Positions 29,217 through 29,504 of a stretch of DNA of 64,000 nucleotides are shown here, one piece after another; within the stretch, counting starts at the first letter, position 1, and each line of letters starts with the position of its first letter. Source of the DNA: Escherichia coli (GTDB lineage Bacteria > Pseudomonadota > Gammaproteobacteria > Enterobacterales > Enterobacteriaceae); the NCBI RefSeq assembly GCF_048403405.1, contig NZ_CP183129.1. The stretch is one strand, 5' to 3'. The translations under genes were made by a program, and so were the position numbers. Under the pieces are notes generated by a model that had not been told where the DNA came from, searched no databases, and worked only from the letters and a program-made list of their open reading frames with translations.

Positions 29217-29504
29217 TTACTGTCTCTGGCAATCTTTATCGCGATAACGCCTGAAGTACCCTCTCGCTTCCTCATCCATACCAAGAGCCGAATGAGTCCG
29301 CTTAACTGCCTGTCTTAAATCTCCGAATCTGTCTGTAGTTGCTGGTGGGCGTGCCGCCTTACGGATACATTCAGAGCGTCTGTTTGCTGCATGTTCACGT
29401 TCTTTATCGCCATCTGCCAGCATCATGACTTCTGCCCATCGTGCGGCAGCTCTCCGGTATAGCCCTTTTGACTCCAGCTCTTCAGCTTTCCTGTCCTTTA
29501 TCAT
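29217..29504 (-). CDS. PerC/Pch-family transcriptional activator-like protein, 95 aa
   Basis: Small basic protein (MIKDRKAEELESKGLYRRAAARWAEVMMLADGDKEREHAANRRSECIRKAARPP...) resembling PerC-family proteins that I recall being carried on P4-like prophage elements; located just inside the island left end. Confidence 0.55.
   Translation of the reverse strand: MIKDRKAEELESKGLYRRAAARWAEVMMLADGDKEREHAANRRSECIRKAARPPATTDRFGDLRQAVKRTHSALGMDEEARGYFRRYRDKDCQRQ

Follow-up and report, generated by a model that had tools for sequence, protein, structure and literature searches.

Gene content of the locus

The DNA analysed here (the window) is a 64,000-nt chromosomal stretch of Escherichia coli, contig NZ_CP183129.1 (assembly GCF_048403405.1), and its subject is a perC-family gene at 29217..29504 on the minus strand, a 288-nt open reading frame (ORF) with an ATG start and a 95-aa product. 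The gene is carried by an 18.15-kb insertion (28742-46892) that lies between dinD and yicC, in the 3' end of yicC, and it ends 469 bp from the left end of this element, a phage-inducible chromosomal island (PICI) of the EcCIMP1 type. Gene and island both belong to kinds already known, the latter since its description in 2025, and the allele is a new one. The most useful new points concern the N-terminal domain of PerC, which on sequence and predicted fold is a protein-binding module resembling AraC negative regulator (ANR) and TPR proteins, and the joining of perC to a second, origin-like iteron array.

The first-pass annotation had described the gene as a PerC/Pch-like activator on a mobile element, in a genome that also carries the eip module of a type III secretion system. 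Much of this is borne out. The reading frame is real, with exact coordinates, an ATG and the ribosome-binding site GAGAGG 5 nt upstream of it (29515-29510, minus strand), family membership is confirmed by alignment over the full length, the carrier is an element with defined ends, and the 5' part of eilA together with eipD, eipC, eipB and eicA is found in the window. The term activator did not find support, as detailed below.

The PerC-family protein and its relatives

The Pfam PerC model (PF06069) spans the whole protein, with residues 1-89 aligned to model positions 1-89 of 90 (E 3.6e-33, 114 bits), and PHROG 994 is also matched (E 2.7e-37). A RefSeq entry named 'PerC family transcriptional regulator' (WP_000617439.1) is 99% identical. 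The conserved core LE.KG.YRRAA.RW..VM and the Cys near position 46 are present, and every residue found to be invariant in 50 homologues, PerC, PchA, PchD and PchE among them, is kept (L10, E11, G14, R18, A19, R22, W23 and C46). Family members examined range from about 89 to 104 aa. A PDB sequence search with the protein, an Rfam scan near perC and PADLOC returned nothing relevant.

For comparison we used PerC of the enteropathogenic E. coli (EPEC) type, from the perABC locus on an IncF plasmid, PchA, PchD and PchE of O157:H7 Sakai, and EcCIMP1_025 of strain MP1. Among these characterised members PchE has the highest identity to the window protein (56%), followed by EcCIMP1_025 (49-53%), PchA (49%), EPEC PerC (41%) and PchD (30%). 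The similarity is unevenly distributed: 27 of the first 28 residues are identical to EcCIMP1_025, while the C-terminal half is closest to PchE (45%) and PchA (42%) and only 34% identical to EcCIMP1_025. The window protein forms a subgroup of its own, with its nearest non-trivial relatives at 60-67% identity; pairwise identities are given in place of a neighbour-joining tree, which was skewed by one partial homologue (P0096). A 104-aa plasmid protein of O55:H7 DEC5B was considered as a representative of PchABC but dropped, as its megablast match was in one genome only, and the Sakai proteins were used.

With 49% identity to PchA, 95 aa, no C-terminal tail of the Pch kind and carriage by a PICI and not by a lambdoid prophage, the protein falls outside the group 1 Pch proteins (PchA/B/C); pchA itself sits in the lambda-like prophage Sp4. 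The outputs recorded for the family are diverse. PerC and PchABC activate LEE1 (PMC11773190, PMC7369912), and PchE, of group 3, represses csgD, curli and adhesion, enhances flagella (PMC6265319, PMC7369912) and does not activate LEE1. EcCIMP1_025 silences LEE1-lux in C. rodentium, in the same assay in which EPEC perC activates it (PMC11773190), and the PerC-like genes of EcCIEDL933 and EcCICFT073 are described as having no effect on LEE1-lacZ (Porter 2005, as cited in PMC11773190). Since tested members activate, ignore or repress LEE1, the function of activator cannot be inferred for the window allele, and its nearest characterised relatives are PchE and EcCIMP1_025, the one without LEE1 activation and the other a LEE1 repressor. 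By its sequence the window protein groups with these non-activators and repressors and not with the PerC/PchABC activators.

Predicted fold and relationship to ANR proteins

The predicted model consists of a TPR-like N-terminal domain of three helices (residues 5-50; pLDDT >90 for all three) followed by a short C-terminal helix, and no DNA-binding fold is recognisable in it. The sole NCBIfam match is to the ANR model NF033650, of which nearly all 54 positions are covered by residues 5-52 (E 5.3e-6); the score of 26.2 bits falls short of the curated cut-off of 32 bits. Scores against this model form a gradient, from EcCIMP1_025 (31.1 bits) through the window protein to PchE (17.9), PchD (16.2), PerC (14.9) and PchA (13.6), with the only known repressor, EcCIMP1_025, at the ANR-like end and the activators at the other.

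With phmmer, no more than 135 clusters were retrieved at E ≤0.001 from 1.84 billion cluster representatives, many of them proteins of 55-75 aa that match the N-terminal domain alone. Nine of ten such short proteins sampled match the ANR model alone, one of them above the cut-off, and from this link the PerC N-terminal domain and the ANR family are, on sequence grounds, homologous. The ANR signature is one of three conserved helices in a protein of <10 kDa, with A10, E14, A22, W26, A29, W43 and R47 (PMC4983702). When aligned by eye, A7, E11, A19, W23, R42/43 and C46 of the window protein line up with it; the equivalent of A29 is a Val and that of W43 is His38, a position that is Trp in EcCIMP1_025 and PchD. 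A TPR-like, ANR-homologous N-terminal domain and the lack of a DNA-binding fold together point to action through protein contacts, and we regard the domain, as predicted, as an ANR/TPR-like protein-binding module. No AraC-type gene was identified among the island ORFs scanned.

Iteron arrays and the proposed perC promoter

Twelve perfect copies of the 9-mer GTTGGTTCA occur in the window, all of them in two arrays of six copies each, and in a shuffle test 0 of 100 shuffles reached the observed count at ≤1 mismatch. Array A (29541..29661) begins 37 bp upstream of the perC ATG and consists of three tandem copies (29541-29567), a 43-bp AT-rich spacer and three inverted copies (29611-29661). Array B (36677..36787) is its mirror image and ends 25 bp past the primase stop codon, the usual place of a PICI origin. 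E. coli PICI origins described in the literature consist of an AT-rich region with one iteron set on each side, and in EcCICFT073 the replicase gene and the origin are both needed for plasmid maintenance (PMC6092414). Each array has this published form and looks like an origin by analogy.

The same pair of arrays is present in EcCIMP1 and in NZ_CP148430.1, a circular record of the same kind of island, and the iterons track the 99%-identical primase and not the divergent PerC. In the EcCIMP1 family, variable cargo appears to lie between the two arrays, with perC as the first gene after the second. Iterons and an origin are not mentioned in the EcCIMP1 paper of Pick et al. (PMC11773190). The first 84 nt of perC (29421-29504) and the array upstream are kept as one block across islands, found in 507 complete E. 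coli genomes, and perC diverges completely past about codon 28, which implies a recombination breakpoint inside the gene. A layout like that of P22 immI (gp16, sieA, mnt / arc, ant) was also considered for this region, in which a 147-aa ORF divergent from perC would encode an Mnt-like repressor with the TTGGTTCA repeats for operators. It was rejected: Pfam, NCBIfam and PADLOC gave no significant match for the ORF, and the repeats recur as a mirror array after the primase gene, matching PICI origins.

Directly upstream of perC the sequence runs from the tandem iterons of array A to a -10-like element, TATATAAT (29525-29518, minus strand), then GAGAGG and the ATG. A comparable arrangement is seen in prophage Sp7 of Sakai, where two TGCGGGTTA arrays stand side by side after the primase gene, followed by genes for a hypothetical protein and a single-stranded DNA-binding protein (SSB) and then by pchE. 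The polycistronic mRNA of this operon starts at a G 10 nt before the ECs1586 ATG (RNA-seq and 5' RACE, PMC7369912). This G lies 23 nt past the tandem iterons, and the order of elements there is tandem iterons, TATATATATAAA, GAGG, ATG. Because the layout in the window resembles this mapped region, perC transcription probably starts near 29513-29515, with a -35 region overlapping the tandem iterons. A pchE promoter fusion lost threefold activity when the prophage was induced with SMX-TM (PMC7369912). A terminator scan found no terminator-like site between perC and the left attachment site, nor any further on up to the dinD LexA box, and transcription from perC may therefore leave the island in the direction of dinD. 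A 'terminator-like' hairpin at 28586-28559 turned out to be that LexA box itself (CTGT-N8-ACAG, CTGTATATAAACACAG), outside the island.

This arrangement raises the alternative that perC serves the life cycle of the island itself, acting on the post-origin promoter, on the integrase, by transcription running through attP when the island is circular, or on helper-phage genes, the host effects reported for its relatives being side effects of over-expression. It would account for the position of perC as the first gene after an origin-like array, a linkage kept in the 507 genomes, for the equivalent post-origin operon occupied by PchE in Sp7, for the shared orientation of perC, attP and int in the circular record, and for the absence of a terminator-like site up to the left attachment site. 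Set against these are the report of Pick et al. (PMC11773190) that the presence of PerC varies among EcCIMP1-like elements, where it is treated as an accessory gene, the finding that a plasmid could be maintained by the EcCICFT073 replicase gene and origin with no other island gene cloned (PMC6092414), and, as a section heading of the pchE study has it (PMC6265319), an effect on Congo-red binding already at basal pchE expression. We consider this role unlikely, though with a chance worth keeping in view.

The carrier island

The island carries an integrase, an alpA-like regulator, a primase/replicase and an iteron origin in the conserved order of PICIs, falls in their size class (about 10-20 kb) and has its own attachment site. 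PHROG scans of its ORFs detected a tyrosine integrase, an AlpA-like helix-turn-helix protein, Ant-like and Ash-like proteins, a P4-alpha-like primase and a P22-type ejection module, and no capsid, tail, terminase or lysis genes. The ends were defined by comparison with the circular attP of NZ_CP148430.1 and with the empty site of strain GN02461. At the left attachment site (28742..28748) the core GGATCTG is kept, and the right attachment site, TTATTCGATATTCTGGATCTG (46872..46892), lies inside the 3' end of yicC, the last codons of which are replaced by synonymous ones supplied by the island. Relative to the empty site of GN02461, the left site is short by 12 nt of the ~21-nt core (28728-28748 versus 46872-46892), and given this shortening the copy in the window may excise poorly. 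Strain 1296KP shows a smaller loss at the left site.

From the right end inwards, the tyrosine integrase gene (45424..46683, minus strand; 419 aa when started at the second Met, as in the homologous RefSeq locus) is 98.6% identical in DNA to the integrase of NZ_CP148430.1. It is followed by an int-alpA RNA motif (45349..45415, minus strand; Rfam RF02996, 60.6 bits, E 1.3e-10) and by the gene for the AlpA-like helix-turn-helix protein (44045..44248, minus strand; PHROG 66), which occupies the position of the PICI master regulator and is 36% identical to the alpA product of EcCIMP1. A C4 antisense RNA (41991-42078) and the isrK RNA paired with it (42141-42218), both on the minus strand and detected by Rfam, lie within a 355-aa 'Ash' ORF (41532-42599), the 5' part of which is on this account probably not coding. 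The primase/replicase of 919 aa (36813..39572, minus strand) is P4 alpha-like, with TOPRIM and DUF927 domains (PHROG 1139, E 5e-178), is 99% identical to the EcCIMP1 primase, and is the presumed iteron-binding initiator.

Between the arrays lies a P22-type module for head completion and DNA ejection (gp14, gp7, gp20 and gp16; 31392..36050, minus strand; PHROGs 651, 598, 917 and 770). Head-completion and ejection genes are here carried by a satellite that has no capsid, tail or terminase genes, and EcCIMP1 has the same module; helper exploitation and superinfection immunity are possibilities for its role. The stretch from perC to the ejection genes contains three cargo ORFs on the plus strand, and beyond weak PHROG matches the libraries tried gave nothing for any of them. 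The first, divergent from perC (29776..30219), is the 147-aa ORF mentioned above, with a weak match to PHROG 30270 and an N-terminus that looks ribbon-helix-helix by eye only, and it is conserved in the circular record. The others specify a 66-aa protein with a hydrophobic C-terminal stretch (30299-30499; weak match to PHROG 6324) and a 139-aa hydrophobic, probably membrane, protein (30954-31373). In other strains the cargo at this position includes Doc toxin, ImmA/IrrE and ClbS.

EcCIMP1 is a PICI from strain MP1 of E. coli, and the P22-like phage Kapi1 mobilises it (Pick, Stadel & Raivio, ISME J 2025, PMC11773190). The MP1 locus has the same gene order as the window island, and window positions 34758-44055 are 97.4% identical to it. 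The gp7, gp14 and primase region is 97% identical, while the gp20/gp16 alleles have no blastn match in EcCIMP1. As the integrase, alpA, gp20/gp16 and perC alleles all differ from those of EcCIMP1, the window island is a mosaic relative of it. Record NZ_CP148430.1, a 12,152-bp circular 'plasmid', is an island of this kind that lacks the ejection genes and encodes a 98.9%-identical PerC beside the same integrase; probably the assembly captured the island in an excised, episomal state. Its content is ant, an icd-like gene, primase, the two arrays, perC, attP and int.

Distribution and relation to the eip region

The perC allele is present in 311 of 5,426 complete E. coli genomes (at least 80% coverage), in several different places on the chromosome, and an O26 strain carries a 100% identical copy. 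A query of the primase gene with array B matched about 554 genomes, some through the array alone, and the eip region is found in 715. Another view is that perC does nothing in this host and is carried as neutral or decaying cargo, which would fit the 12 nt lost from the left attachment site, whereby the island copy may be immobilised, and the lack of a consensus promoter upstream of the gene. It fits poorly with an intact ORF that has a good ribosome-binding site and all the family-invariant residues, with full-length conservation of 96-100% across the 311 genomes, and with alleles that have been exchanged while the reading frame was kept, and we regard it as highly improbable.

The eip region occupies the left end of the window on the minus strand, with eicA (5118-5615), eipB (3089-4870), eipC (1946-3076), eipD (553-1902) and the 5' part of eilA (1-350), which the window edge cuts after about 117 codons. 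It is AT-rich, with 36-40% GC. Strongly AT-rich stretches flank the window on both sides (1-6000 and 60000-64000), the right one, of 33-35% GC, being the waa/rfa lipopolysaccharide-core cluster in strain GN02461. GN02461 has an eip region 100% identical to that of the window and an empty yicC-dinD site, from which it follows that the island was acquired independently of eip.

The first-pass annotation had raised the possibility of regulatory cross-talk from the mobile element to the eip locus or to virulence genes outside the window. Spelled out, a PerC/PchABC-type activator would lift the silencing of virulence regulators and would here act on eilA, eicA-eip or ETT2. In favour of this, the protein does belong to the PerC family, shares 49% identity with PchA and has a PchA-like FRRY segment in its C-terminal part. 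The HilA-like relative ygeH is silenced by H-NS and eilA is not expressed in LB medium (PMC4210603), Pch binds low-GC regions occupied by H-NS, and AT-rich DNA such as the eip island is of the kind silenced by H-NS and bound by Pch (PMC4764244). This is the only argument for cross-talk between perC and eip, and it is a generic one. Against it stand the closest tested relatives, which repress LEE1 or fail to activate it, an ANR-like score near that of the repressor EcCIMP1_025 and far from those of PerC and PchA, the identical eip of GN02461 without the island, and the spread of the allele over 311 genomes at several sites; a literature search found no paper linking PerC or Pch with EilA. We judge activation of this kind distinctly unlikely.

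Proposed role of perC

The reading we favour, to which we give about an even chance as a whole, is that perC encodes a PerC-family accessory regulator of an EcCIMP1-type PICI in the 3' end of yicC, and that it modulates transcription indirectly. We take as shown the placement in the family, the nature and limits of the element, the layout of the iterons, the fold as predicted and the kinship with ANR proteins; the binding partners, the direction of regulation, the position of the promoter and the coupling to replication are what we infer. The protein would alter transcription by contacting other regulators or nucleoid proteins, the candidate partners being H-NS/StpA/Hha silencing complexes, which Pch counteracts, or AraC-type regulators and H-NS, which ANR proteins bind. 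The expression of AT-rich, horizontally acquired genes and of host surface-structure genes would be shifted as a result. In the resting island perC would probably be transcribed at a low constitutive level, and upon induction, replicase binding at the iterons that overlap the promoter -35 region would be expected to turn it down.

Several points weigh against an indirect regulator of this kind. Tested members of the family give opposite outputs, and the direction of regulation is not readable from the sequence; the C-terminal half carries a QAV.R.HS.LGM..E.R..FRRY segment that is closest to the activator PchA. The helix-3 Trp that is essential in Aar (PMC4983702) is His38 in the window protein, the ANR score is below the cut-off, and a TPR-like match is weak evidence of function for a helical unit of 50 residues. 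Fukui et al. were unable to co-precipitate H-NS with PchA and regard Pch as DNA-associated in chromatin immunoprecipitation, which weakens a model of protein contacts alone. A consensus sigma-70 scan found no promoter upstream of perC, and the proposed promoter rests on analogy with a PICI that has a different iteron sequence.

A bolder extension of the favoured reading, which has in our view only a slight chance of being right, would build the perC promoter into a second, mirror-image copy of the origin, so that replicase occupancy switches a TPR/ANR-like global modulator upon helper induction and the island acts as a relay that resets H-NS-silenced host islands, possibly including eip/ETT2.

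The label 'PerC family' is not equivalent to virulence activator, and the present comparison corrects that tempting over-reading; among the tested members, with their activating, neutral or repressing outputs at LEE1, the window allele takes an intermediate place. What is gained is a sharper hypothesis for the family, with its N-terminal domain as an ANR/TPR-like protein-binding module. Within the EcCIMP1 family, some 500 complete E. coli genomes have perC directly attached to an iteron array resembling an origin, which allows a direct test of whether satellite induction and host regulation are linked.

Comparison with known systems

The closest system is that of EcCIMP1_025, which shares with the window gene the island family, identical iterons, a 99%-identical primase, the position directly after the second iteron array and the upstream DNA, as well as the near-identical first 28 residues and a high ANR-like score. 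The two proteins differ overall and above all in the C-terminal half, including Trp38 in place of His38, and the host islands differ in integrase, attachment site (tRNA-Thr, and yicC for the window island) and alpA allele (36% identity). Of the two, EcCIMP1_025 alone is a demonstrated repressor of LEE1.

PchE (ECs1588, in Sp7 of O157:H7 Sakai) is likewise encoded after the replicase gene and origin of a satellite-like element, and at the post-origin promoter there, tandem iterons, a TATA-rich element, GAGG and an ATG follow one another as in the window. It is, however, the third gene of its operon and has capsid genes behind it, and in Sp7 the TGCGGGTTA iterons form two contiguous arrays, whereas those of the window island are separated by cargo. 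PerC of the EPEC plasmid pEAF and PchA/B/C of lambdoid prophages in enterohaemorrhagic E. coli belong to the same Pfam family and share the KG-YRRAA-RW-VM and Cys46 core, and the C-terminal segment of the window protein is PchA-like. They differ from it in identity (41% and 49%, respectively), in a 104-aa form with a C-terminal tail that is absent from the window protein, in carrier, and in their much lower ANR-like scores (14.9 bits for PerC and 13.6 for PchA, against 26.2). The ANR proteins (Aar, Cnr and Rnr) are <10 kDa, whereas the window protein has 95 aa and an extra C-terminal helix; in common are the predicted three-helix N-terminal domain, the signature residues A, E, A, W, R and C as aligned by eye, and the phmmer bridge to proteins of ANR size.
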